The notes beneath the pieces were generated by a model. The model saw only the letters and a list, made by a program, of their open reading frames with translations. It was not told the DNA's origin and did not search any database. Of a DNA stretch of 39,485 bases, positions 1 to 38,411 are shown piece after piece. Within the stretch, counting starts at the first letter, position 1. The number at the start of each line of letters is the position of its first letter. Both the position numbers and the translations under genes were made by a program. The DNA comes from a virus (lineage: Duplodnaviria; Heunggongvirae; Uroviricota; Caudoviricetes): IMG/VR virus record IMGVR_UViG_2802429241_000009. One strand, given 5' to 3'.

Positions 1-1251
1 GTGCTTACCGATACAAAATTAAAAAACCTCAAGCCGCAGGACAAACTGTACAAGGTCTCCGATCGTGACGGGCTGTATGTAGCTGTGCTTACGTCAGGCA
101 CGGTCTCGTTTCGTTATGACTACCGTATCAACGGTCGCCGCGAAACACTGGTAATCGGGCAGTATGGGCGTGACGGTATCAGCCTGGCAGAAGCGCGAGA
201 AGAACTGATTGCTGCAAAGAAGCTGCTTAAAGCAGGCCAGTCGCCGGCTGCGGCTAAACGTGACGGTATCAAAAAGATTCGTGGTGCCGAGACGTTTGCG
301 GTACATACCGACAGTTATATGAAACACGTCATCCTGGCTGACAGTACCCGCGCAATGAAGCAGGCGGTGATCGACCGTGACATACTTCCGGTTCTTGGCA
401 ACAAAATGATGGCTGAAATTACCACATCGATGGTTCGTGATTTGTGTGACCGGATTGTCGAACGCGGTGGTCGGGCAACAGCAGTACAGGCCAGGGAGAT
501 CATCAGCAGCGTATACCGTCACGCCAATGACCGTGGTCATGGTTTGTTTAATCCTGCGGCTGACATTAAACCTTCGTCTATCGCCATATTTAAACCACGA
601 GAGCGAACACTGACACCAGAAGAAATTGGCCTGTTCTTCCGCACGTTGGATGCCATTGGTGCTATGGGCACTATGAAAATGGCTTTAAAACTGGTGCTTA
701 TCACTATGGTTCGTAAGGGCGAATTCGCCAATGCAACGTGGGATGAAATAGATTTTAAAAAATGGACATGGACAATTCCTTCAGACCGCATGAAGGGAAG
801 CCGGGCGCATGTTATTTACCTGCCTAAACAGGCTCAGGATATATTGGTCGGGTTGCAGATGTGCGCTGGTGGAAGTGAATATCTGGTTCCTGGTCGTTAC
901 AATTTCAGGAAGCCATTATCTAATGCCGCGCTGAACTCTCTGATCGACAGAACGGTGAAAATAATAAACGAAGATGGTGAGCATATTCAGGACTTCACTG
1001 TACATGATATGCGCCGTACAGCCAGTACGTTGTTGCATGAGGCTGGTTATCCTTCAGACTGGATTGAAAAGGCTCTGGCACATGAGCAGAAAGGTGTGCG
1101 CGCCGTATATAACAAAGCGGAATACGCCAGACAGCGCGCCTACATGTTGCAGCAGTGGGCCGATATGATTGATTCCTGGATTAACGGGGAGCATACGGAT
1201 CTGATTCCGTTCTCCCCGTCGAAGTTTGAGAAGTGGATGGCGGGGGAATAA
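1..1251 (+). CDS. int: Tyrosine-type phage integrase; GTG start at window position 1, so the true 5' end may lie upstream
   Basis: 416-aa ORF; C-terminal HDMRRTAST...LAHEQKGVRAVYNKAEY resembles the tyrosine recombinase catalytic region (R..H..R..Y); N-terminus typical of prophage integrases. Confidence 0.9.
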   Translation: MLTDTKLKNLKPQDKLYKVSDRDGLYVAVLTSGTVSFRYDYRINGRRETLVIGQYGRDGISLAEAREELIAAKKLLKAGQSPAAAKRDGIKKIRGAETFAVHTDSYMKHVILADSTRAMKQAVIDRDILPVLGNKMMAEITTSMVRDLCDRIVERGGRATAVQAREIISSVYRHANDRGHGLFNPAADIKPSSIAIFKPRERTLTPEEIGLFFRTLDAIGAMGTMKMALKLVLITMVRKGEFANATWDEIDFKKWTWTIPSDRMKGSRAHVIYLPKQAQDILVGLQMCAGGSEYLVPGRYNFRKPLSNAALNSLIDRTVKIINEDGEHIQDFTVHDMRRTASTLLHEAGYPSDWIEKALAHEQKGVRAVYNKAEYARQRAYMLQQWADMIDSWINGEHTDLIPFSPSKFEKWMAGE

Positions 1252-5099: not shown

Positions 5100-5684
5100 T
5101 TATTGTTTGTTTTTTTCGTTCTGGTTGATGACAAATTCAATGTAACTTTCGATCTTTGCTTTCTCGGTTTCGGGTAACAATGCGTAGCGCGAGCGATCAT
5201 AGTTGATGGTCGCAGGGTCGTGCGGGTGAATCAGTAATTCATAGCCGTGACGCCCGAATGCGGATGCAACATTCTCCAGGGTGGAAATGGAAACGCTGAC
5301 CTCATTGTTTAACAGGCGGCTGATTGTCACCTGGGCGACGCCGGATGCGCGGTGTAGTTTTCCCTGCGTTGAAAGGTCGCGGCTTTCGCTCATCCAGCGT
5401 TCCAGGTTGTGAGCCGCCAGCTGACCAATGTCGCTAGGGCCGACAGGCTGAAAACCTTCCTGAGAAAGCGAGCGATCGATATCAAGCCAGTTACGGGGTT
5501 TATTGGCGGCAGCTTCAATTTTTCGCGCAACCTGGTCGCCGATAACCTTCTTGCCAAGAGCCCAGCGGTTTACCAGATTTGCCTGAGTTCCAAGTTTTTC
5601 AGCCATCCGCGTCTGAACACCATTGAATTCACGGTCGATCAAGTCGTTGAGATTTTGCCTGCGGACGTCCTGGATACTTTTCAT
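5100..5684 (-). CDS. Prophage repressor candidate (CI-like position, two HTH-like segments, no visible autocleavage module)
   Basis: 194 aa, divergent from the Cro-like gene; followed by an intrinsic terminator; no Ala-Gly/Cys-Gly plus Ser-Lys peptidase module recognised by eye. Confidence 0.65.
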   Translation of the reverse strand: MKSIQDVRRQNLNDLIDREFNGVQTRMAEKLGTQANLVNRWALGKKVIGDQVARKIEAAANKPRNWLDIDRSLSQEGFQPVGPSDIGQLAAHNLERWMSESRDLSTQGKLHRASGVAQVTISRLLNNEVSVSISTLENVASAFGRHGYELLIHPHDPATINYDRSRYALLPETEKAKIESYIEFVINQNEKNKQ

Positions 5685-8986: not shown

Positions 8987-9972
8987 CGATCACAAAACAA
9001 CGGGTAGAAGAAATCATATCCCGCATTGAAATGTATGGGCATGGTGCAGGGTATACCGCCGAAGAGGTTTATGACCTGGCTGTACTGGCGCTGAATTTAT
9101 CAAATATCGCAAACCTGAAGCGATACGAGCTTGATATGGAAGGTTGCGACTCGTGCGGTCAGGATTGTGGCGCTGACATGACTGAAGATTCTGATGGCGA
9201 TTATGTCCTGTTTGATGACGTGGTTAAGTTGTTTGATTTTGATACAACCACTCAGAAGTTAGAAAGCCCAGCAAAGGAGGCAACCAGGGAGCAAGATGAT
9301 TATCAGGCACTGCGCGAGGCGGCAGAACGTGCAATTCCGGCAATGGAACGCCTGTTAATGTTGCCAGTTGATGATGATTTGTTAACTGAACAGGAACTTA
9401 AGGATTACGGTGTGGATATTGATGCGCTCAACGCCTTCAAATTTCTGGCCGGACCAGAAACCGTGCTGGCACTGCTGGATGAACGGGAAAGAAACCAGCA
9501 ATACATCAAACGCCGCGACCAGGAGAACGAGGAAATTGCGCTAACGGTAGGGAAGCTGCGTGTTGAGCTGGAAGGCAAAGACAGCAAAATAGCCAATCTT
9601 ACCGCCGAACGCGATGCTCTTCGTGAAGGTGAGATGGGCGACGCTAGGCATAGCAACACACGGGCCGCAGCTGATATCTACTTCCAACTGGTCGAGGAGT
9701 GCGAAATTCCTGCTGGCGGATCTCTGGTCGAGTACGTTGACGATATGCGCGAGAAGCTGGAAGCCGCAGAGAAGCGCATTGCAGAGTTAGAAAGTGGTTC
9801 TCAGGCACAAAAGTTAGTTGAAGCAATCATTGTTGCGATAGAAAACGAACAGGAAAGGCTTTTTGATGAAGATTACCTAATGGATTCGAAAGAATGCATT
9901 GACGTAATTCGTGAAGAAGTAAAGCGATGGAATGATTCCCGTGCCGCTGGCATTCGCATCAAAGGAGAGTGA
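8983..9972 (+). CDS. Hypothetical acidic coiled-coil protein (329 aa)
   Basis: Long ORF, start overlaps the upstream stop; acidic/coiled-coil composition. Confidence 0.55.
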   Translation: MTITKQRVEEIISRIEMYGHGAGYTAEEVYDLAVLALNLSNIANLKRYELDMEGCDSCGQDCGADMTEDSDGDYVLFDDVVKLFDFDTTTQKLESPAKEATREQDDYQALREAAERAIPAMERLLMLPVDDDLLTEQELKDYGVDIDALNAFKFLAGPETVLALLDERERNQQYIKRRDQENEEIALTVGKLRVELEGKDSKIANLTAERDALREGEMGDARHSNTRAAADIYFQLVEECEIPAGGSLVEYVDDMREKLEAAEKRIAELESGSQAQKLVEAIIVAIENEQERLFDEDYLMDSKECIDVIREEVKRWNDSRAAGIRIKGE

Positions 9973-13811: not shown

Positions 13812-13888
13812 TGGCGTGGCATGCAGGATTCGAACCTGCGACCAACCGCTTAGAAGGCGGTTGCTCTGTCCGACTGAGCTAATGCCAC
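13812..13888 (-). tRNA. tRNA-Arg (anticodon UCU), phage-borne
   Basis: 77 nt with full cloverleaf: 7-bp acceptor GTGGCAT/ATGCCAC, D-stem GCTC/GAGC, anticodon stem ACCGC/GCGGT with loop CTTCTAA, T-arm GCAGG-TTCGAAT-CCTGC, encoded CCA; close to E. coli argU as recalled. Confidence 0.85.
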
Positions 13889-27819: not shown

Positions 27820-30294
27820 ATGAGACAGGAATGTATACAAGCGGTCCAGCAGGCGGCGCAGCGCACGTTAACGGCGCGAGAAATACAGAACATTGAAGAC
27901 CGCATTTATCGCAATATGCGCTCCATTGCTCGTGATGACCCTATGTCGTGGCGACAACTTTCCGAGTCAGAGCGGCTGTATCGTGCAGCACAATTGGCAT
28001 CTGAAGAATTACAGCGAGAAGCGGCATTAAAGAAACGTCGTGTGGCTCTCACTATAGCCGCACGTCAGAGATTGGATAAATTTATCAATAGCTATCAAGG
28101 GGCTGATGGGAAACTTGGCGCTCTTAACCGTACTATTGCTTTTAATGCAGACGGTAAATCGAATTTCCTCTCTGTTGAGTCCAGAACAAAAGCCACTCGT
28201 GATTATGCATTGAGTCAATTGCAGGAGGCATTCGAAGCAGTTGATCCTCGCTTTTTTGGCCTGTTTGAAGATGAAGCGGGCGTGCGTGACCTGGTATATG
28301 AAATGCGAGGGCAAAATACTGGCAATGCTAAAGCAAGAAAAGGTGCTAAGGCGTGGAGAGAAGTGACAGATCTACTCCGCCGCCGGTTTAATGATGCTGG
28401 TGGGGACATTGGCTATCTCGAAAACTGGGGGATCCCTCAACATCATTCTATGGAAAAGGTTGGGGCGGTATCAAAGGATAAGTGGGTTAGCGATGTTATA
28501 GGTAAGCTGGATCGCAAATATTATATCCGAGCCGATGGACAACTGATGAATGATGCCGAGTTGTCTGCATTTCTTGGAGAGGCTTATAACACGATCGCTA
28601 CTGGTGGGCTGAATAAGCTTACTGATACCGGAATGCGAATTTCCGGCGCACGTGCTAACCGTGGTAATGCATCACGACAGATACATTTCAAAGATGCAGA
28701 TTCCTATCTCCAATATCAACAACTTTATGGCGATCGCTCTCTATGGGAAATCATGGTCGGTCACCTGGAAGGGATCAGTAAAGATATTGCTCTGGTGGAA
28801 ACATATGGCCCAAACCCCGATCATGTTTTCCGTTCCCTTCTTGATCAGGTGAAGGCTGAAACGGCAACAGCTAACCCGAGTAAAACCGGTAGCGTTGAGC
28901 GGCTGGCGAACAAAACAGAGAACCTGTACAACTTTATTTCCGGAAAGACACAGCCTGTAGCTAATCCGCACATCGCGCGATGGTCTGACAATATCCGCAA
29001 CTGGCTGGTTGCCAGCAGACTCGGATCCGCGTTGCTGTCATCGTTCTCTGATCTTGGAACCATGTATCTGTCTGCGAAGGTTACCAACCTTCCAATGAAC
29101 CAGTTATTCCGCAACCAGCTTGAAGCTATGGACCCAACGAACCGTACTGAGCTTGCGCGGGCGCGCCGAGCTGGTCTGGCGATGGAATCTCTACTTGGCA
29201 GCGTTAACCGCTGGGCGATGGATAATATGGGGCCGTCTGTGTCTCGTTGGGCGGCAACGGCGGTAATGCGTGCCAGTGGGCTTACAGCATGGTCAGATGC
29301 GCACAAGCGCGCCTATGGCGTAACTATGATGGGAAGCCTGGGAGAAGTAGTGTCACGGACACCAGACCTTCGTAGCCTCGATGACTCTGATTTTCGTATC
29401 CTGAAAAGCAAAGGGATTACTGACACAGACTGGAGCGTATGGAAGCTGGCGCAACAGGAGGACTGGGGGAACGGTAATAATACGATGCTGACACCGGAAA
29501 GCATTATGCGTATCCCTGATTCAGCAGTTAAACATCTTGGTGAGCCTGAACGTGTGAAATTTGAGGCAATGCGTAAACTGCTCGGTGCCGTAACTGAAGA
29601 AGTTGATATGGCTGTTATTACACCGGGCGCACGTGAACAGATGTTCGTAGGGTCTGGTCTTCAGCGTGGAACATGGAAAGGTGAATTAACGAGAAGTGTT
29701 TTCCTGTTTAAATCGTTCCCTATCTCGGTAGTTATGCGTCACTGGCATAGAGCTATGGGGATGCCGTCTGCTGGTGGGCGTGCGGCATATATAGCAACGT
29801 TTTTAGCAAGCACAACCATGCTTGGTGCTCTTTCCATGCAGATTACTGATCTTATTAATGGGAGAAATCCAAAAGAAATGACCGGTGACAACATGGTTAA
29901 ATTCTGGATAAATGCATTTTTAAAAGGTGGTGGGGCAGGGTTGTATGGTGATTTTCTTTTCTCTGACCACACCAGGTACGGGAGCGGCGCACTAGCGTCG
30001 ATGCTTGGCCCGGTAGCTGGTCTGGTTGATGACGTAGTGAAGATTGCTCAGGGCATACCGTTAAATGCTGTGGAAGGGAAGAATGAGCAGACTGGTGGTG
30101 ATCTGGTTAAGCTTGGGAAAGGTTTGATGCCTGGTGCGAATCTCTGGTACTTGAAGGCGGCTCTCGATCACATGATCTTTAACCAGATGCAGGAGTATTT
30201 TTCACCAGGCTATTTGCGTAAAATGGAGCAACGTTCGAAGAAAGAGTTTAATCAGACATACTGGTGGCGACCTCAGGATGTCACTCCGCAATAA
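27820..30294 (+). CDS. Internal virion / ejection protein (T7 gp16-like position)
   Basis: 824 aa; GAGAGG SD. Confidence 0.55.
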   Translation: MRQECIQAVQQAAQRTLTAREIQNIEDRIYRNMRSIARDDPMSWRQLSESERLYRAAQLASEELQREAALKKRRVALTIAARQRLDKFINSYQGADGKLGALNRTIAFNADGKSNFLSVESRTKATRDYALSQLQEAFEAVDPRFFGLFEDEAGVRDLVYEMRGQNTGNAKARKGAKAWREVTDLLRRRFNDAGGDIGYLENWGIPQHHSMEKVGAVSKDKWVSDVIGKLDRKYYIRADGQLMNDAELSAFLGEAYNTIATGGLNKLTDTGMRISGARANRGNASRQIHFKDADSYLQYQQLYGDRSLWEIMVGHLEGISKDIALVETYGPNPDHVFRSLLDQVKAETATANPSKTGSVERLANKTENLYNFISGKTQPVANPHIARWSDNIRNWLVASRLGSALLSSFSDLGTMYLSAKVTNLPMNQLFRNQLEAMDPTNRTELARARRAGLAMESLLGSVNRWAMDNMGPSVSRWAATAVMRASGLTAWSDAHKRAYGVTMMGSLGEVVSRTPDLRSLDDSDFRILKSKGITDTDWSVWKLAQQEDWGNGNNTMLTPESIMRIPDSAVKHLGEPERVKFEAMRKLLGAVTEEVDMAVITPGAREQMFVGSGLQRGTWKGELTRSVFLFKSFPISVVMRHWHRAMGMPSAGGRAAYIATFLASTTMLGALSMQITDLINGRNPKEMTGDNMVKFWINAFLKGGGAGLYGDFLFSDHTRYGSGALASMLGPVAGLVDDVVKIAQGIPLNAVEGKNEQTGGDLVKLGKGLMPGANLWYLKAALDHMIFNQMQEYFSPGYLRKMEQRSKKEFNQTYWWRPQDVTPQ

Positions 30295-30303
30295 GGAAGT
30301 GTT

Positions 30304-30477
30304 GTGTTTTTAATTATTTTGAGTGTGATAATTTCTGGTGGGTTGTTATTTATTGACCGCTACAAATATTTTCTTAACCCTCAGACTCAAGCTATTTGCT
30401 GGTTCATCTTTGTTGTGCAGGGAATAGTTCTTGTTGCAAGCCTTATTGAGGGGAGGCCTCTGATTTTTACTGGGTAA
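30304..30477 (+). CDS. Small hydrophobic membrane protein (57 aa, two predicted TM segments)
   Basis: Not in the ORF track; GTG start after AAGGAAG; VFLIILSVIISGGLLFI and ICWFIFVVQGIVLVASLI hydrophobic stretches. Confidence 0.3.
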   Translation: MFLIILSVIISGGLLFIDRYKYFLNPQTQAICWFIFVVQGIVLVASLIEGRPLIFTG

Positions 30478-30489
30478 ATAGGTGACTAC

Positions 30490-30786
30490 ATGCAAGCGAT
30501 AGGATTCATTGTTTATATCGTCGTTGGCCTTTTTCAGTTGGCAGCAATTATGGCTGGGCTTGAATCAAGGTGGGGATTGCACTGGATAATTGCAGCCCCC
30601 ATTGCTTTCATCGTGAGCTATATTCCATTTGTTGGAGCGATTGTTGGTATGGTTGGTGCTGTGGATGTATGGCGGTGGGAGTGGTGGCAGGCTGGCCTTC
30701 TCTTCTTTGGTGGGATCATCTTTGCTATTGTCTGCGGTGGAATGTCATCATTTTTCGAACGGCTATCATTCAGAAAAGGAACGTGA
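30490..30786 (+). CDS. Small integral membrane protein (98 aa, about 3 TM segments)
   Basis: Strongly hydrophobic ORF; GGTGA SD; followed by a hairpin plus T-run terminator. Confidence 0.5.
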   Translation: MQAIGFIVYIVVGLFQLAAIMAGLESRWGLHWIIAAPIAFIVSYIPFVGAIVGMVGAVDVWRWEWWQAGLLFFGGIIFAIVCGGMSSFFERLSFRKGT

Positions 30787-30794
30787 CATGTCAC

Positions 30795-30819
30795 AGGCCG
30801 CTTTCGCGGCCTTGTTTTT
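30795..30819 (+). terminator. Intrinsic terminator after the 98-aa membrane protein gene
   Basis: AGGCCGC-TTTC-GCGGCCT followed by TGTTTTTA; lies between convergent genes. Confidence 0.65.
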
Positions 30820-30979
30820 AACGAATGCCACCGCCACCCGGGCGGGAATCCGCAGAACGCCCACCGCAGCGGGAGCCGTCAGCGGCAGTATCGCTGTCGT
30901 GCTGACAACGACCGGCAAAAGCCTGAGTTGAAGCTACCAGAGACAACAAAACGAACAGTGCAGCAAATGCTTTTTTCAT
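30818..30979 (-). CDS. Signal-peptide microprotein (53 aa; mature peptide about 31 aa with 2 Cys)
   Basis: MKKAFAALFVLLSLVASTQAFA looks like a Sec signal peptide with an AFA cleavage site; convergent with the upstream + gene; competing + ORF 30788..30931 crosses the terminator. Confidence 0.35.
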   Translation of the reverse strand: MKKAFAALFVLLSLVASTQAFAGRCQHDSDTAADGSRCGGRSADSRPGGGGIR

Positions 30980-31051
30980 TGTGAAATTTCCATCCATAAG
31001 CCACCTCAATGTGGCGTCAATGAGTGTAGCACTGACTTTTGTTTCGTCCAC

Positions 31052-31074
31052 AAAAAAAGCCCGCAGCGCTGGCT
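31052..31074 (-). terminator. Intrinsic terminator at the 3' end of the 179-aa membrane protein gene
   Basis: Minus-strand imperfect hairpin overlapping the stop codon followed by TTTTTTTG. Confidence 0.5.
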
Positions 31075-31613
31075 TACCAAAACTTGTACCACGGGGATTT
31101 ATCCTTCAATGGGCAATCCTTCCATCGTGTGGCCAACCATTCATATTCTTTAAAATATGTGTTTATGTTTTCTTTTTCTCTAATGGCTTGTATAAGAGGT
31201 AGCGCAATCTGATAGTTATTTACAACGGAGCTGTAAAATACTTCCTTAATCATGGTCTCATCATAAGTTTTCCGCTTCACGCTCACAGCCATGCGTTCGT
31301 AGAAACCTAGACAGTAAATTATTTCTCTCTTCTCTGTCTTTTCTTCATCCGTAAGATCAGCCTGCCCATTGCTTGGATACATATAAGAGCGGAATGATTT
31401 GTTCGATTCGTGAATGCGGCGCATAGTAGATAGGCCTTTCTTATAATCTACATCAAACCTGCTTTCACCAAGGAATACTGAAGTGTGTACTTTTCTCGCT
31501 GTATTTACATTATAAATAATAGTAGCGATAGCTATGAACAAGCCAAGCGAAACCGCGACTGCACTTACGATTTGAGCCACAGCCATGGCAAATTGCATTT
31601 CTTCACTTAACAC
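31074..31613 (-). CDS. Membrane-anchored hypothetical protein (179 aa), AT-rich gene; candidate superinfection-exclusion or defence protein
   Basis: GTG start after GGAGA; N-terminal TM (AMAVAQIVSAVAVSLGLFIAIATIIY); visibly lower GC than neighbours; hairpin/U-run structures at both ends. Confidence 0.55.
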   Translation of the reverse strand: MLSEEMQFAMAVAQIVSAVAVSLGLFIAIATIIYNVNTARKVHTSVFLGESRFDVDYKKGLSTMRRIHESNKSFRSYMYPSNGQADLTDEEKTEKREIIYCLGFYERMAVSVKRKTYDETMIKEVFYSSVVNNYQIALPLIQAIREKENINTYFKEYEWLATRWKDCPLKDKSPWYKFW

Positions 31614-31630
31614 AAACTGTCTCCAGACAT

Positions 31631-31653
31631 GAAAACGGGGCCTAATGGCCCCG
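31631..31653 (-). terminator. Hairpin plus short U-run between the antirepressor gene and the 179-aa gene (terminator or attenuator)
   Basis: Minus-strand CGGGGCC-ATTA-GGCCCCG followed by TTTTC, ending about 20 nt before the GTG start of the 179-aa gene. Confidence 0.45.
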
Positions 31654-31822
31654 TCATTAAACTATCCGAATGTTAAACGCCTTCGTACTCGTCAAATTTT
31701 CTCATGTGGGCTCCTCCTGTATCGGTGCATAATCGCTATGGATCACCCGTGAGGTAATAGTAAGCTATTCACCTGCAATCTGTACAGAATTATTTAAAGG
31801 CACATCCCTGTGCCGCCGCTCG

Positions 31823-32509
31823 TCAGAAGAACCCTGCCTTGTCGTTGATGTACTCCGCGTGCGTCTGGATATCACGCAGGCATTTGCTCACACCGACGAT
31901 GTAGCAGAACATGGTGGTCAACTCCGCCGCCGCGCCCGATACGTCGTGCCCGTCTTCCTGTAACTGGTTCAGCAGATTCATCAGCAGTGAGTTCTCCGTC
32001 AGGCCGAGAACACCAGACGGCGAGTGAATCAGGCTGCGGTAGCCTGGCTTCAGCGGGGCGCTGTAGGTTTTGTTCTCTATCTTCATCGCCTGCATCACTG
32101 CTGACGCCGTGGCGTTGGCTACCTGGTCGGCAACCATCTTTATGCGTTCTTCCTGCGGGAGCGAGTTTTTAATGTAACTTCCGGTGCGGCGGATCTGAGG
32201 AAGAACCTCACCTGTAACCCATTTACGAAAGCGGTAGGGGATAGTGCCTGGTGTCACCGCATCGCGGCAGCGGAGGATCAGTGTGTAGAGGCCTGACTCG
32301 CTGATAATATTGGTTTCGCCTTGACGACCTAAGTTAAATTTAGCCCTTTCATCATCATCAAGAGATTTGATTGACATGGTGGGGTTTGTCAGTTGAAGAG
32401 CTTTAATAACGTCTTTGGCAACAAACCAAGGATTTCCATCAATAACAATGGCTCGAATGGTTGCTTCTGATTCAAAATGAAAAACAGATGGGGTTACGTT
32501 AGCAGTCAT
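31823..32509 (-). CDS. BRO-N domain antirepressor-like protein
   Basis: N-terminal SVFHFESEATIRAIVIDGNPWFVAKDVIKALQL resembles the BRO-N signature; AGGTG SD before the ATG; long structured leader upstream. Confidence 0.7.
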   Translation of the reverse strand: MTANVTPSVFHFESEATIRAIVIDGNPWFVAKDVIKALQLTNPTMSIKSLDDDERAKFNLGRQGETNIISESGLYTLILRCRDAVTPGTIPYRFRKWVTGEVLPQIRRTGSYIKNSLPQEERIKMVADQVANATASAVMQAMKIENKTYSAPLKPGYRSLIHSPSGVLGLTENSLLMNLLNQLQEDGHDVSGAAAELTTMFCYIVGVSKCLRDIQTHAEYINDKAGFF

Positions 32510-32667
32510 GGCAATCACCTTTTAGTATGGTTAATCACCACCTGAGGTGCAAATCTCGTTGGTGGTGAGACGTACAGGGTTTGCACTACCGGCTAAAAGG
32601 ACCCGGCGCACCTTTCGGTGCCCCTGCACGTCCCACCATAATTCTGGCATGACTGTGCTATACGCAT

Positions 32668-32690
32668 AAAAAAACCACGTCTGGCGTGGT
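32668..32690 (-). terminator. Intrinsic terminator inside the antirepressor upstream region (attenuator or 3' end of a short RNA)
   Basis: Minus-strand ACCACG-CCAGA-CGTGGT followed by TTTTTTTAT. Confidence 0.6.
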
Positions 32691-32750
32691 ATGCGCCTTT
32701 TAGTAATCCGGGGTGCAAATCCCGGCACTGGATTTTGCCAGTGCTCGATT

Positions 32751-32779
32751 ACTATGGCACAAGAGGAGTGCGATGTAAA
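32751..32779 (-). promoter_or_regulatory. Candidate leftward promoter of a short structured RNA / antirepressor leader
   Basis: Minus-strand -35 TTTACA (plus 32774..32779), 17-bp spacer, -10 CATAGT (plus 32751..32756); predicted start near 32744. Confidence 0.3.
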
Positions 32780-32780
32780 T

Positions 32781-32795
32781 TTACCGCAAAGGTAA
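32781..32795. promoter_or_regulatory. Operator-like palindrome TTACC-N5-GGTAA adjacent to a candidate leftward promoter of the antirepressor leader
   Basis: Exact; abuts the candidate -35 (TTTACA on the minus strand). Confidence 0.5.
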
Positions 32796-32873
32796 TGATA
32801 AACGCTGATAAATATAAAAATCAACCGTATTTGGTTGATTGCGTTTAACGCTTGATCACCTGAAAGCAAGATA

Positions 32874-32888
32874 TTACCTTTAAGGTAA
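32874..32888. promoter_or_regulatory. Operator-like palindrome TTACC-N5-GGTAA just upstream of the zinc-ribbon protein gene
   Basis: Exact; overlaps the alternative ATG at 32888. Confidence 0.5.
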
Positions 32889-32908
32889 TGTTATTGTGGG
32901 GAAAAGCA

Positions 32909-33637
32909 ATGGAAGTTTTCTGGATAGTTGTTGGTGTGGTTGCGGTGATTATTTACGTTATCAACCAGAACAAGACTAAGATCTCTGATCGTACGGTCGT
33001 TAATCATAACAAAACGATAAAGACCGAAGATGGGGAGATAACGATTAATCGTACACAGGTGATAGAACACACCTCTACTCAGTTTCAAAAAACTGGAGGT
33101 AATGCGCCTAATATTTCCGCACCTCCTGCTTATGATAGTGCGGTAATCCAGACATATTATAAACAGCAGGAGTTAGCAAAAGAGAGGCAACTGATTCAGC
33201 CAAAGCCGTTTACAGCTGAGCTTCCACCTGGAGTGTCAACGCGTCCGGCATATCATGGAAGATTCCCTGGTGATGACATATCGTCTCAGTCATCTAAAAA
33301 AGCACCTCAGGCAGTATCAGAGCCAGCAAGAATACCTTCTGTATCGCCGCCAAAAGAAGAATCAGCTAACAGAGTTTCAAGTGGTAGCAAGCAGTGCTTG
33401 CGATGCAGAATAAACCTTCCATATGAAAAATTCAGGAAATCGTCAAAAAATCCAGATGGATTGACTAAGTGGTGTGCAAGGTGTCTCGATGGCCCAAAGA
33501 ATACACGCCATATGAAGTGGTGCCCAATTTGTAATGTCCGCAGAAAACGAACCAGTTTTTACCCTAATAATCAAAATGCGGATGGCTTAATGGCATGGTG
33601 CAAAACGTGCTGGGACGAGCACAAAGCGAAACGATAG
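32909..33637 (+). CDS. Membrane-anchored protein with a tandem C-terminal zinc-ribbon-like repeat
   Basis: N-terminal TM (VFWIVVGVVAVIIYVI); Ser/Pro-rich linker; two repeats of C-x2-C-x(17-20)-DGL-x3-WC-x2-C; ATG at 32888 is an alternative start. Confidence 0.55.
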   Translation: MEVFWIVVGVVAVIIYVINQNKTKISDRTVVNHNKTIKTEDGEITINRTQVIEHTSTQFQKTGGNAPNISAPPAYDSAVIQTYYKQQELAKERQLIQPKPFTAELPPGVSTRPAYHGRFPGDDISSQSSKKAPQAVSEPARIPSVSPPKEESANRVSSGSKQCLRCRINLPYEKFRKSSKNPDGLTKWCARCLDGPKNTRHMKWCPICNVRRKRTSFYPNNQNADGLMAWCKTCWDEHKAKR

Positions 33638-33660
33638 GCCGCTCTTGCGGCCTTTTCTTT
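33637..33660 (+). terminator. Intrinsic terminator after the zinc-ribbon protein gene, between convergent genes
   Basis: GGCCGC-TCTT-GCGGCC followed by TTTTCTTT. Confidence 0.65.
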
Positions 33661-33916
33661 ATGTGGTTTGTTTTCGTAGTTGTTCGGCACAATAGTCGAG
33701 ATGTGTTTGCAGATCCTGCATAGACATCTGTGAGCTGGTGACGTAGTTAATCAGTGCAGTCAGTTCGGCAAGTGGGCCATCGACATTAAATCCATCCTTA
33801 TCGAGATCCCGGAGTAATTTCATCAAGTGCGATCCCTCCACCAGTGATCTGACGCCTCCCGGCGTGTGAATCCTTTCGGTAAATCCGTCTTCCAGTGGAT
33901 AGTGATACCGCTGCAT
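33659..33916 (-). CDS. Small antirepressor-domain protein (85 aa), putatively LexA-controlled
   Basis: Homologous by eye to the C-terminal about 80 aa of the BRO-N protein at 31823..32509 (shared IH.P.GV, LM.LL, DG..V.G..AELT, D.QTH..Y); GGAGAAG SD; LexA-box-like site 21 nt upstream. Confidence 0.55.
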   Translation of the reverse strand: MQRYHYPLEDGFTERIHTPGGVRSLVEGSHLMKLLRDLDKDGFNVDGPLAELTALINYVTSSQMSMQDLQTHLDYCAEQLRKQTT

Positions 33917-33935
33917 CTTATCTTCTCCATGTAAT

Positions 33936-33955
33936 AACTGTATATTTATACAGTA
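33936..33955. promoter_or_regulatory. LexA box (SOS box) candidate
   Basis: AACTGTATATTTATACAGTA: CTGT-N8-ACAG with an all-A/T spacer, 18 of 20 matches to TACTGTATATATATACAGTA as recalled; 21 nt upstream of the ATG of the minus-strand gene 33659..33916. Confidence 0.7.
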
Positions 33956-33992
33956 TCAAATAATTTGTTTGCTATCCAGCACGTTTTGCAAA

Positions 33993-34007
33993 TTACCTGA
34001 AAGGTAA
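33993..34007. promoter_or_regulatory. Operator-like palindrome TTACC-N5-GGTAA in the divergent region between the small antirepressor-domain gene and the tailspike
   Basis: Exact inverted repeat. Confidence 0.5.
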
Positions 34008-34111
34008 TATCTATTCGTATTCACAGTCTTTCTATCCATATGTGGTTTTTCAGGTAATAGAATAACCAGATATGCGGCGCAACGGGTGCTGCGACTATCT
34101 GGAGATTTAAC

Positions 34112-36244
34112 ATGACGGTCTCAACCGAAGTTGACCACAACGAATACACCGGTAACGGCGTTACGACATCATTTCCGTATACCTTCCGTATTTTCAAAAA
34201 ATCCGACCTGGTTGTTCAGGTGTCTGACCTGAACGGGAACGTAACAGAATTGGTTCTGGATACCGGTTATACGGTAACAGGGGCGGGCACTTATAGTGGC
34301 GGTTCTGTGGTTCTTCCGTCTCCGCTTGCTACTGGATGGCGAATTACGATAGATCGTGTGCTTGATGTAGTGCAAGAGACAGACCTTCGCAATCAGGGAA
34401 AGTTTTTTCCCGAAGTGCATGAAGATGCCTTTGACTATCTGACGATGCTGATCCAGCAATGTTTTGGATGGTTCAGACGTGCATTGATGAAACCCACGTT
34501 GCTTGCAAAATATTATGATGCAAAGCAAAACAGAATTTCTAACCTTGCAGATCCATCATTTGAGCAGGACGCTGTAAATAATCGCTCAATGCGTAATTAT
34601 GTCGATGCTGCAATCGCCGGGGTTGTTGGTGGTTTTGGCTGGTTTATTCAGTATGGTTCTGGGGCAGTATACAGAACGTTCCAGGATAAGATGCGAGATA
34701 CCGTCAGTGTTCGCGATTTTGGGGCGAAGGGGGATGGTTTTAGTGATGATACCCCATATATTCAGCAAGCAAATGATACAGCCACATCAATTGGTGCCAC
34801 ATTACATTTCCCAAGAGGGGTTTACGTTTGTACTGATGGGATTGATAAAACGTGCGAGTGGACTGGTGTTGGTGCGGCAAAAATAGGTGTATTTCCACTA
34901 AACGATGATAAAGTTTATATGGTTCCAGGAAATAAGCACAAATTGCCTGGAACTTGCCTCTTATTCAAAGGTACGGGTAGTAAGGTATTTACTACAGGAA
35001 GAAGTGATAAATTCTCATCTATGCGTTATTGTATCCGTAATATCGGTCGAAAAGATAAAGGGCTCACTGCATTTGGTAGGGATTTTTCTGTCGTTTGCGA
35101 TTTTGACTTTAAAGATCAAGATGGAAACATAACGCAACCTAATAATGATAATTCTGCGGATTATGATGTTGGGTTGATACTTGACAATACCGATTTGTCA
35201 GGACCAGTTAATGTTACTGTTGGTGGTTACTTTAAAAAATCTGGAATTGTACACATGGGGCAGGATCCCGATGGTTGTACAATTATCAATACACGCACAA
35301 TGGGGAACATTGGTCTTGCTATTATTGGTGATCAAACAGGAACTAACAGTGCATTCAATATGCACGGTGGCGCTATTTTTGGCAATGATCACCATAGTCG
35401 AAACACCGAACAAGGTGTTGAAAAATGGGGTGAGCATGCACTTTACATTGATATTCCATCATCGTCAGGAAACGGTTCTAGAAACGGTATTTCTTTTTAC
35501 GGAACCTGGTTAGCGACTAAGTTGGATGTTCCTGTAAAATATGACAGATGTGGAGCCGTTCAGTATTTTGGTGTGGTGTTTGAGAATGCAACACAAGCAG
35601 GTAGCCAACAAGCTGGAGGTATTAAAAAACAAATTGGAACCAGTAATACAGGTGATATAGGTTTCTTTGGGTGCAGATTTAATTCAGACCAGATACGTAT
35701 TTCTGGTGCCTTATTGGAGACTGCGACGGAATCGACAGTGATCGTTTCTGGAAGTAATGCTGGATATGGTGTTGAATTTTGGAAAGGAAAGGTTGGAGGG
35801 CGTTTTACAGGAAGCAAAAATCAAACAAATATTCAACTAACGGATGATCCAACAAAAACAACTAGTGGTATTGTTCTTCGTCGTGACAATACAGGAAATT
35901 TCCATGTAATGAAAGATAATGACATTAAATTATCAGTTGATGATAAAGGCATTATCACTAGATCATCTTATACAGTTGTTACTGTTTCTGCTGGAGAAAT
36001 TACTGTTACCAGAAACTTTCATAGATTATCTGGAGGGGCGCAAGAGTTATCTACTATTAATGGTGGTAATGAAGGAATGAGGGTAATTCTTACACGTAAT
36101 ACATCAGCGGATGACATAACATTGAAGAATCAGATAGGAAACCTTCGTATCAATGGTGATTTCATGTTAGGTGCTTTTGACACCATCGAATTGATCTACA
36201 TCGGAGGATACTGGAATGAGATTTCACGTGTAAATCGCTCTTAA
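34112..36244 (+). CDS. Tailspike / tail fiber with beta-helix depolymerase-like central domain
   Basis: N-terminus MTVSTEVDHNEYTGNGVTTSFPYTF resembles the conserved podovirus tail-fiber anchor domain; VRDFGAKGDGFSDDTPYIQQA resembles pectate-lyase-type beta-helix starts; distal part AT-rich. Confidence 0.8.
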   Translation: MTVSTEVDHNEYTGNGVTTSFPYTFRIFKKSDLVVQVSDLNGNVTELVLDTGYTVTGAGTYSGGSVVLPSPLATGWRITIDRVLDVVQETDLRNQGKFFPEVHEDAFDYLTMLIQQCFGWFRRALMKPTLLAKYYDAKQNRISNLADPSFEQDAVNNRSMRNYVDAAIAGVVGGFGWFIQYGSGAVYRTFQDKMRDTVSVRDFGAKGDGFSDDTPYIQQANDTATSIGATLHFPRGVYVCTDGIDKTCEWTGVGAAKIGVFPLNDDKVYMVPGNKHKLPGTCLLFKGTGSKVFTTGRSDKFSSMRYCIRNIGRKDKGLTAFGRDFSVVCDFDFKDQDGNITQPNNDNSADYDVGLILDNTDLSGPVNVTVGGYFKKSGIVHMGQDPDGCTIINTRTMGNIGLAIIGDQTGTNSAFNMHGGAIFGNDHHSRNTEQGVEKWGEHALYIDIPSSSGNGSRNGISFYGTWLATKLDVPVKYDRCGAVQYFGVVFENATQAGSQQAGGIKKQIGTSNTGDIGFFGCRFNSDQIRISGALLETATESTVIVSGSNAGYGVEFWKGKVGGRFTGSKNQTNIQLTDDPTKTTSGIVLRRDNTGNFHVMKDNDIKLSVDDKGIITRSSYTVVTVSAGEITVTRNFHRLSGGAQELSTINGGNEGMRVILTRNTSADDITLKNQIGNLRINGDFMLGAFDTIELIYIGGYWNEISRVNRS

Positions 36245-38136: not shown

Positions 38137-38321
38137 CATGGCATTTTTCATGGTACTGATTTCCGGTGACGGTATATAAAACGGTACTAGAAAAATGAAG
38201 TTTTGGAAAAACGTTATCACTCAATTGGTTATGATTGTCGTAAATAATTGAGTGGGAATAAACCCGAACACTAAATGCTGAGGTTTTCTATTCGTACGAG
38301 GCTTCAGCATATTTTGGTAAC

Positions 38322-38354
38322 AAAACCCTCTGTTCATCCACTGGAGGGTTTTTT
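38322..38354 (+). terminator. Intrinsic terminator after the lysis cassette (A-run / hairpin / T-run, potentially bidirectional)
   Basis: AAAACCCTC ... GAGGGTTTTTT with a 13-nt loop; a second hairpin at 38275..38310 precedes it. Confidence 0.65.
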
Positions 38355-38411
38355 ATGCAATTAAAAAGCCCATAATCCTCACGAATTACAGGCCTGGTAG
38401 TGGAAAGACGA

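Follow-up and report, generated by a model that had tools for sequence, protein, structure and literature searches.

The stretch of DNA analysed here (hereafter, the window) is 39,485 nt long, and the element it carries is a phiV10/epsilon15-like prophage (genus Uetakevirus) of E. coli. At the locus under study lies ant, a short gene for an 85-aa protein that is preceded by a LexA (SOS) box and is divergent from the tailspike gene; the repressor gene rep and a gene for a larger antirepressor paralogue, a BRO-N::Ant-like fusion, are located elsewhere in the window (Table 1). The ant region shares 95–99% DNA identity with phiV10-like E. coli phages (TL-2011b, ZX5, phiV10 and the O157 typing phages); with epsilon15-like Salmonella and Enterobacter phages, the figure is about 77%. 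In all relatives, ant is divergent from the tailspike gene and ends the block of virion and injection genes. Between the injection-protein gene and ant, the window contains the BRO-N paralogue, a DUF4760 gene and a convergent 249-aa Cys-rich gene, and the hairpin that separates the latter from ant resembles a terminator, probably one acting in both directions. The attP core of ZX5 and phiV10, ATTGAGTGGGAATGATT, was not found in the window.

The product of ant is 88% identical over 85 aa to SPC32H_020, a protein of the same length that is annotated as "ant: anti-repressor protein". It matches chain E ("Anti-repressor protein") of PDB entry 5D50 over residues 2–85 (88% identity, E = 3e-47) and PHROG 450 (E = 2e-47); 5D50 and 5D4Z are the entries for the SPC32H Ant/Rep antirepression system. 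No Pfam or NCBIfam model matches Ant, and because of this the protein is called "hypothetical" in most records, the RefSeq rows listed for ant labelling the product "hypothetical protein". In Pfam, the 85-aa protein has neither a Bro-N (PF02498) nor a KilAC domain. Judged by these homologies, Ant is a stand-alone antirepressor of the SPC32H type and not a BRO-N/KilAC antirepressor.

Searching 50,697 phage records with Ant (tblastn) gave just 35 with a match, which belong to phages of Escherichia, Salmonella, Enterobacter and Klebsiella plus one further phage; those with taxonomy inspected are Uetakevirus or unclassified, and SPC32H and SPC32N are among the 35. In the protein-database search, no relative below 70% identity was reached, and nearly all of those found are stand-alone proteins of 85–86 aa. 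Within E. coli, the ant locus is present in 531 of 5,426 complete genomes (about 10%).

Table 1. Genes, control elements and Rep regions discussed in the text (positions are those of the window, except for Rep, where residues are given)
Feature	Position	Strand	Basis or remark
ant, 85-aa antirepressor, SPC32H Ant orthologue	33659..33916	-	ATG start; homology
LexA (SOS) box AACTGTATATTTATACAGTA	33936..33955		matrix score, conservation
Candidate ant promoter	33950..33978	-	inferred; conserved layout
Shine-Dalgarno GGAG, 8 nt ahead of ant ATG	33925..33928	-	sequence; GGAG columns conserved in 10-phage alignment
GC-rich hairpin between the convergent ant and 249-aa genes	33636..33653		terminator-like on + strand
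Tailspike gene	34112..36244	+	divergent from ant
rep, 194-aa prophage repressor, presumed Ant target	5100..5684	-	phiV10-type; homology
BRO-N::Ant-like fusion, larger antirepressor paralogue	31823..32509	-	228 aa from ATG 32509; GTG 32518 also possible
BRO-N gene leader: isrK-like sRNA, C4 antisense RNA, 39-codon upstream ORF	32558..32744	-	Rfam
Palindromes	4965, 5027		downstream of rep, ahead of leftward early genes
Palindrome	5739		between rep and rightward gene
Palindromes	8020/8082, 11394/11412, 14210		ATTACC-N5-GGTAAT scan
Palindrome, 1 mismatch	32780..32796		abuts -35 of candidate isrK promoter
Perfect palindrome ATTACCTTTAAGGTAAT	32873..32889		just upstream of 249-aa gene
Palindrome ATTACCTGAAAGGTAAT, predicted repressor operator	33992..34008		between ant and tailspike gene; invariant in 10 phages
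Rep N-terminal region	residues 1-70		54% identity to SPC32H Rep; 33/70 invariant across six Rep types
Rep linker	residues 71-88		17% identity to SPC32H Rep; 0/18 invariant across six Rep types
Rep middle HTH_3 domain	residues 89-157		33% identity to SPC32H Rep; 20/69 invariant across six Rep types
Rep last 33 residues	residues 158-190		51.5% identity to SPC32H Rep; 13/33 invariant across six Rep types

The LexA box and the candidate ant promoter

The LexA box upstream of ant is the 20-mer AACTGTATATTTATACAGTA, which reads TACTGTATAAATATACAGTT on the ant strand; in AACTGTATATTTATACAGTA, the arms CTGT (33938–33941) and ACAG (33950–33953) enclose an A/T-only spacer, ATATTTAT, and the box differs at two positions from the E. 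coli consensus TACTGTATATATATACAGTA. The gap to the ant ATG is 19 nt when counted from the 20-mer and 21 nt when counted from the CTGT core, and the gap to the tailspike ATG is 156 nt. The first-pass annotation had described a CTGT-N8-ACAG motif with an A/T-only spacer 21 nt upstream of the ATG, and had given it as the only LexA-like box in the intergenic regions it examined; the motif can be read directly in the sequence, the distance is that from the core, and the uniqueness now holds for the entire window. This latter statement relies on an approximate, symmetrised weight matrix derived from 20 E. coli LexA boxes, with which the training sites score 13.1–26.4 bits and the consensus 29.8 bits. 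The ant box reaches 27.6 bits, the next best 20-mer in the 39.5-kb window 10.7 bits, and the maximum over 200 shuffled windows is 20.1 bits, so that the site at 33936..33955, which scores above every shuffle, is the sole LexA-box-grade site in the whole window. The bare core CTGT-N8-ACAG, on the other hand, is about as frequent as expected (16 sites with at most one mismatch, four of them exact, versus 14 expected) and, thus, shows no enrichment; its count is uninformative and only the full 20-mer matrix discriminates, which is why the matrix was used.

Conservation of the box was followed by aligning the 200-nt upstream regions of ant in the window and in nine phages of Escherichia, Salmonella, Enterobacter and Klebsiella hosts; in this alignment, which has a mean column identity of 75%, the box is among the best-conserved blocks. 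In all nine other phages, covering these four host genera, it lies 18–20 nt from the ant ATG and scores 17.7–27.9 bits, with 22.4–27.9 bits for the six from Escherichia, Salmonella and Enterobacter and 17.7–18.9 bits for the three from Klebsiella, which have ATGT in place of CTGT in one arm. A second set, comprising 80 near-identical IMG/VR contigs (98–100% identical, E. coli), is useful for counts rather than for diversity; 76 of the 77 contigs with enough upstream sequence have a box of at least 24.5 bits at 18–20 nt from the ATG. Four spacer variants occur among these contigs, and both the CTGT and the ACAG arm are intact. Intact arms, a variable spacer and a fixed position together make up the pattern that would be expected of selection for LexA binding.

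The candidate ant promoter consists of a -35 element, TGGATA (33978..33973), a 17-nt spacer and an extended -10 element, TGaTACTGT (33958..33950), the hexamer of which is formed by the first six nucleotides of the LexA box on the ant strand. A default sigma-70 scan reported no ant promoter; a relaxed scan allowing for an extended -10 element recovered a promoter-like arrangement at the same position in 7 of the 10 aligned phages, and both CTGGA.A and TG.TA are invariant columns in the upstream alignment. We infer that the ant promoter is positioned as given in Table 1, with the LexA box lying over its extended -10 element. An alternative -35 element, TTGCAA, located beside the palindrome, was dropped, since it has no conserved -10 partner.

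The Rep repressor and operator-like palindromes

With SPC32H Rep as a query, one homologue is found in the window, the product of rep (42% identity over 196 aa, E = 8e-42). This protein is 100% identical to the phiV10 repressor and matches chain A of PDB 5D50 over residues 1–190 (E = 4e-42) as well as the Rep(92-198) fragment of 5D4Z. It contains two HTH-like regions, and Pfam assigns HTH_3 only; no Peptidase_S24 autocleavage domain was detected with Pfam, which agrees with the earlier remark that the repressor lacks an evident autocleavage module. It is a full-length homologue of the non-cleavable SPC32H Rep, but, at 42% identity, it represents a different immunity type.

While the C-terminal half of Rep is 37% identical to that of SPC32H Rep, its best-conserved part is the last 33 residues. 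By position, these correspond to the segment for tetramerisation and Ant contact, termed "CAD", as described in PMC9986798. It is, thus, plausible that a conserved Ant recognises a conserved Rep tail, despite identities of 88% for Ant versus 42% for Rep. The segment NLVNRW in the N-terminal region of Rep does not vary between Rep types, in agreement with an operator common to them.

A candidate for such an operator is the palindrome ATTACC-N5-GGTAAT, which occurs at 15 sites in the window when up to two mismatches are allowed, versus 1.0 expected. In SPC32H, the same palindromes are found at equivalent positions ahead of the same operons (12 sites with at most one mismatch versus 0.08 expected), and the epsilon15 GenBank record annotates the equivalent of the ant-tailspike site as "protein_bind: repressor, lysogeny". 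These palindromes are, thus, predicted to be Rep operators. The palindrome in the ant-tailspike interval has its centre about 57 nt ahead of the start site inferred for ant and, given this distance, more probably serves the divergent tailspike promoter.

The BRO-N paralogue and its RNA leader

Alignment by eye had suggested that Ant resembles the last 80 or so residues of the BRO-N protein, and this is borne out by pairwise alignment, in which Ant and residues 150–227 of the larger protein are 40% identical over 78 aa without a gap (E = 1e-15). The Pfam Bro-N domain is contained in the larger protein only (residues 21–107), and the two proteins share just the C-terminal Ant-like domain. In the BRO-N protein this domain also matches PHROG 450, and 21 positions are invariant across eight stand-alone Ants and the fusion. 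The BRO-N protein is 83% identical to ORF4 of phage ZX5, overexpression of which has been reported to lower lysogeny about 1000-fold (PMC9782041). Full-length homologues of the fusion are present in only 18 phage records.

The BRO-N gene is preceded by an RNA leader. It comprises a match to isrK (32668..32744, minus strand; 67.4 bits, Rfam gathering score 50), a match to the C4 antisense RNA (32558..32643, minus strand; 77.8 bits, Rfam gathering score 45) and a 39-codon upstream ORF (32651..32531) that overlaps C4. A candidate isrK promoter, TTTACA-17-(TG)CATAGT, lies at 32779..32751 on the minus strand, and its inferred transcription start (about 32744) is the first base of the isrK match. 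TL-2011b, phiV10, Tyrion and Klebsiella phage ST512-KPC3phi13.3 have the same isrK and C4 cassette ahead of their BRO-N genes; it was not found in the SPC32H region searched, and SPC32H is also devoid of the BRO-N paralogue under isrK/C4 control, the DUF4760 gene and the 249-aa Cys-rich gene of the window. In phiV10 and Tyrion, the cassette is located directly downstream of ant on the same strand; in the window, the convergent 249-aa gene parts ant from the isrK/C4 and BRO-N cassette.

The layout of the BRO-N leader resembles the c4-icd-ant arrangement in immI of phages P1 and P7. A further counterpart is the Gifsy-1 locus with the order PisrK-isrK-orf45-anrP (PMC4825925), which is shared with the BRO-N paralogue and not with the small ant gene; in the window, the BRO-N gene follows an isrK-like sRNA that has a terminator of its own, a C4-type RNA and a short upstream ORF. 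Unlike in Gifsy-1, the BRO-N protein of the window has a C-terminal domain like SPC32H Ant, and a palindrome resembling the Rep operators abuts the candidate isrK promoter. This paralogue behind an isrK/C4 leader and operator-like palindromes is the less familiar part of the system. Taken together, the prophage appears to possess two antirepressor genes that have in common one Rep-binding-type domain and are under different controls.

The proposed induction switch and its relatives

For SPC32H, a LexA-Ant-Rep antirepression system has reportedly been described by Kim and Ryu in 2013 and by Kim et al. in 2016. This phage belongs to the same genus, Uetakevirus, exhibits the same divergence of ant and the tailspike gene, and has a LexA box (TACTGTATGTTTATACAGTG, 25.3 bits) at the same distance to the ant ATG as in the window. 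According to the reports cited, the SOS/LexA-controlled Ant of SPC32H inhibits the repressor via protein-protein contact (PMC7380047); Rep binds DNA as a tetramer, which is broken when an Ant tetramer binds two Rep dimers (PMC9638917); and Ant interacts with Rep at the same C-terminal domain, "CAD", through which Rep tetramerises (PMC9986798). All features of this module that can be tested at the sequence level recur in the window, namely, Ant homology, the LexA box, a Rep without S24, and synteny. Since Ant is 88% identical and both the box and the synteny are conserved, the SPC32H mechanism is the best explanation here, and the induction switch of the window is very probably an SPC32H-type antirepression module.

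Such a switch would operate as follows. In the lysogen, Rep would occupy the ATTACC-N5-GGTAAT operators ahead of the lytic operons, and host LexA would bind to the single SOS box, covering the extended -10 element and the transcription start of ant; with both of these occluded, Ant would not be made. Upon DNA damage, RecA-stimulated self-cleavage of LexA would free the ant promoter and Ant would accumulate, bind to the conserved C-terminal tetramerisation segment of Rep and split the DNA-binding Rep tetramer into dimers, leading to derepression of the prophage. That this Ant binds this diverged phiV10-type Rep, we infer by analogy with SPC32H.

Induction data are available for close relatives. 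The Rep of phage ZX5 is identical and its Ant 99% identical to that of the window, and treatment with mitomycin C raised its titre from about 1e7 to 1e9 PFU/mL; the study in question examined the BRO-N antirepressor only, never mentioned LexA and made no link to the small ant gene (PMC9782041). In a study that included DNA-damaging bacteriocins, one of these, the microcin Mcc1229, gave 21- to 47-fold induction of prophages of the phiV10 species; here, too, no link to the small ant gene was drawn (bioRxiv 10.64898/2026.05.26.727859). Both data sets fit an SOS-type trigger. Considering that the repressor is non-cleavable, inducibility by mitomycin C would necessitate a factor like Ant. The proposal made in the first-pass annotation, SOS induction through a LexA-controlled small antirepressor, is, thus, supported by orthology to SPC32H, by the conserved box and by a repressor without S24.

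The same annotation had likened the circuit to that of coliphage 186 Tum and of Gifsy-type prophages; while the likeness to the 186 circuit stands, the closest relative of Ant is SPC32H Ant and not Tum or the Gifsy antirepressors. In coliphage 186, a LexA-repressed small antirepressor acts against a non-cleavable repressor, as is proposed here. The annotated SOS promoter p95 of 186 has almost the layout of the candidate ant promoter: its -10 element, TACTGT (29044–29049), follows TGc and is formed by the first six nucleotides of the LexA box (29044–29063). This box, TACTGTATGTTTATACAGTA, has exactly the sequence found ahead of ant in epsilon15 and lies 18 nt from the tum start codon, compared with 19 nt between the box and the ant ATG in the window. 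Unlike Ant, Tum is a protein of 146 aa from a P2-like myovirus and acts on 186 CI. Homology of Ant to Tum was rejected, as one pairwise BLASTP comparison gave 17 bits (E = 0.05); on this comparison, the likeness between the two is one of circuit and of candidate promoter architecture and not of protein family.

In immI of the temperate podovirus P22, an antirepressor gene is found between the injection-protein genes and the tailspike gene, making it a positional analogue of ant. P22 Ant is controlled by Mnt, Arc and sar, whereas the small Ant of the window has a LexA box; neither mnt or arc genes nor a sar RNA match were found in the window. A P22 ant mutant stays SOS-inducible (PMC7380047).

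Other readings of the locus have to be weighed against a LexA-controlled Ant as the inducer. If the BRO-N::Ant-like protein were the real inducer, the small Ant would be only a modulator (e.g., by forming mixed oligomers), comparable to the truncated Tum products that, according to the phage 186 record, "modulate SOS induction"; the effect of the overexpressed ZX5 protein on lysogeny and the Ant-like domain with its 21 invariant positions would be in line with this. We regard it as improbable, though, given that the whole-window matrix scan found no LexA box at the BRO-N gene and that this gene is absent from SPC32H and epsilon15, both of which have the small Ant alone. Moreover, the BRO-N cassette is accessory, being present in 47 of the 80 IMG/VR contigs, while the small Ant is constant, and the BRO-N protein of phiV10 has no detectable Ant-like C-terminus, with tblastn giving a single Ant-like place in that record.

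Alternatively, Ant made in the SOS response might spare its own diverged Rep and be directed chiefly, in trans, at other resident prophages or at a different target. The unequal conservation of Ant and Rep (88% versus 42%) would agree with this, as would the antirepressor crosstalk that has been documented for Gifsy prophages (PMC7380047). It is, however, very unlikely in view of the Rep segment matching the Ant-contact position, which is the best-conserved part of the C-terminal half, of the pairing of ant and rep, which is preserved in every relative examined, and of the need for such a factor in a mitomycin C-inducible phage with a non-cleavable repressor. Finally, the A/T-rich, LexA-like palindrome might have arisen by chance, be a relic or belong to the divergent tailspike promoter, but this reading can practically be dismissed: the core alone is not enriched and the intergenic region is common to ant and the tailspike gene, but the score (27.6 bits) exceeds the shuffle maximum (20.1 bits), phages of four host genera keep the box at a fixed distance to the ant ATG with the arms conserved and the spacer varying, and the box is much farther from the tailspike ATG (156 nt) than from the ant ATG (19 nt).

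Based on the LexA-controlled Ant as the preferred inducer, a more tentative and, in our opinion, rather doubtful extension is that phiV10-type prophages use one Rep-binding domain in an antirepressor circuit of two tiers, together with a generalist small Ant. The LexA-gated small Ant would then be the SOS trigger. The BRO-N fusion, which is located behind an isrK/C4 leader flanked by predicted Rep operators, would not be made until Rep had begun to fail, or else upon superinfection, and could either lock induction in a feed-forward manner or counteract immunity in trans. Since Ant keeps 88% identity between Rep immunity types that share only 42%, and its contact is presumed to be with the conserved Rep tail, a generalist Ant is possible, and the small Ant may co-induce heteroimmune Uetakevirus prophages.

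The antirepression system as such is already known from SPC32H and, conceptually, the LexA-antirepressor paradigm gains nothing new. What is new is an E. coli orthologue that is paired with a diverged Rep immunity type and is encoded by an unannotated gene in a very common prophage group, to which the known induction mechanism would, thus, be extended. Prophages of the phiV10 type have a repressor devoid of an autocleavage domain; the LexA-Ant model would explain their response to mitomycin C and to a bacteriocin from work on DNA damage, and it would do so through the very gene that the ZX5 study left aside. Deletion of ant or mutation of its LexA box would provide a handle to stabilise or trigger phiV10-type prophages. 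Derivatives of phiV10 serve as reporter phages for O157, where control over induction could be of help.

Probable promoter architecture and distribution of the ant locus

The region upstream of the gene for Ant, the 85-aa, probably LexA-controlled small antirepressor (33916..33978), is of the same construction as the p95-tum promoter of phage 186 (record L095, 29020..29085), from which the LexA-controlled antirepressor Tum is expressed. Both combine a TGn element with TACTGT, a hexamer that opens the LexA box and is the -10 in phage 186 and the candidate -10 of ant; in both, 18-19 nt separate the box from the start codon. The LexA box of phage 186 is, moreover, identical to that of epsilon15 ant. 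Despite this common layout, the similarity between the Tum and Ant proteins is not significant. Of the 5,426 complete E. coli genomes in RefSeq, 531 contain the ant/LexA-box locus (e.g., NZ_CP025573.1, 3095342..3095862). Among the RefSeq records listed, Ant is labelled "hypothetical protein", and no Pfam or NCBIfam model covers its fold, although a crystal structure exists.

Operator-like palindromes and the BRO-N leader

The palindrome ATTACC-N5-GGTAAT, which is annotated as a repressor site in the epsilon15 record, is about 15-fold over-represented in the window and lies upstream of the majority of transcription units, among them the accessory genes from 30300 to 33650. SPC32H, the Salmonella phage with a characterised LexA-Ant-Rep system, shows an equal enrichment of the motif, although Rep, the prophage repressor, is only 42% identical to its SPC32H counterpart.

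The leader of the gene for the larger BRO-N antirepressor contains Rfam-grade matches to isrK (67.4 bits) and the C4 antisense RNA (77.8 bits), together with a 39-codon upstream ORF, and thereby mirrors the PisrK-isrK-orf45-anrP arrangement of Gifsy-1. The isrK/C4 cassette also precedes the BRO-N genes of TL-2011b, phiV10, Tyrion and one Klebsiella phage; it was not found in the region of SPC32H that was searched. TL-2011b (record L003) is the closest full-length relative of the antirepressor region. Farther along its accessory region, this phage carries a match to the P22-type sar antisense RNA (9223..9290; 44.8 bits, gathering score 43), and the Rfam scan of the window returned no sar match.

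Coordinates of features in the window
Feature	Position	Strand	Remark
416-aa integrase	1..1251	+	left window edge
Rep	5100..5684	-	
tRNA gene	13815..13888	-	73 bits; between terminase and portal operons
Small membrane-protein ORFs	30304..30786	+	
DUF4760 protein gene	31074..31613	-	E 8e-31
39-codon upstream ORF	32651..32531	-	in BRO-N leader
BRO-N gene leader	32558..32744	-	isrK and C4 elements
249-aa protein gene	32888..33637	+	PHROG 6762, function-unknown family
Ant	33659..33916	-	
Two lipoprotein-like ORFs	38137..38411		right end, after Rz-like gene
ATTACC-N5-GGTAAT 17-mers	4965, 5027, 5739, 8020, 8082, 11394, 11412, 14210, 31742, 32780, 32873, 33992		palindrome

Accessory genes and prophage ends

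Between ant and the isrK cassette, the window holds the gene of a 249-aa protein with a transmembrane-like N-terminal segment and C-terminal Cys-rich repeats weakly resembling Stc1/endonuclease VII/HNH zinc motifs; at this position in phiV10, the gene is absent. Translation of this protein probably begins at the ATG at 32906 instead, since the listed start overlaps with a perfect operator-like palindrome. The accessory region that separates the gene of the 824-aa injection-type protein from the antirepressor genes is taken up by the DUF4760 gene, with the palindrome at 31742 upstream of it, and by the small membrane-protein ORFs, whereas the corresponding stretch of SPC32H holds only a 46-aa membrane protein. 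At the position matching the tRNA gene, SPC32H carries a tRNA-Arg.

No copy of ATTGAGTGGGAATGATT, the guaA-type attP core described for ZX5, phiV10 and epsilon15, was found in the window, and the prophage therefore probably uses an integration site different from theirs. The lipoprotein-like ORFs at the right end have the appearance of chromosomal genes.

Conservation of Ant and of the repressor tail

While the repressors have diverged to the extent stated, Ant and its SPC32H counterpart share 88% identity. Conservation of Rep is concentrated at both ends, with 54% identity over the N-terminal 70 aa and 51.5% over the last 33 aa, where 13 of the 33 positions are invariant among six Rep types. 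As judged from these sequence comparisons, this pattern suggests that the conserved tail is what Ant recognises, and Ant might act across immunity types.
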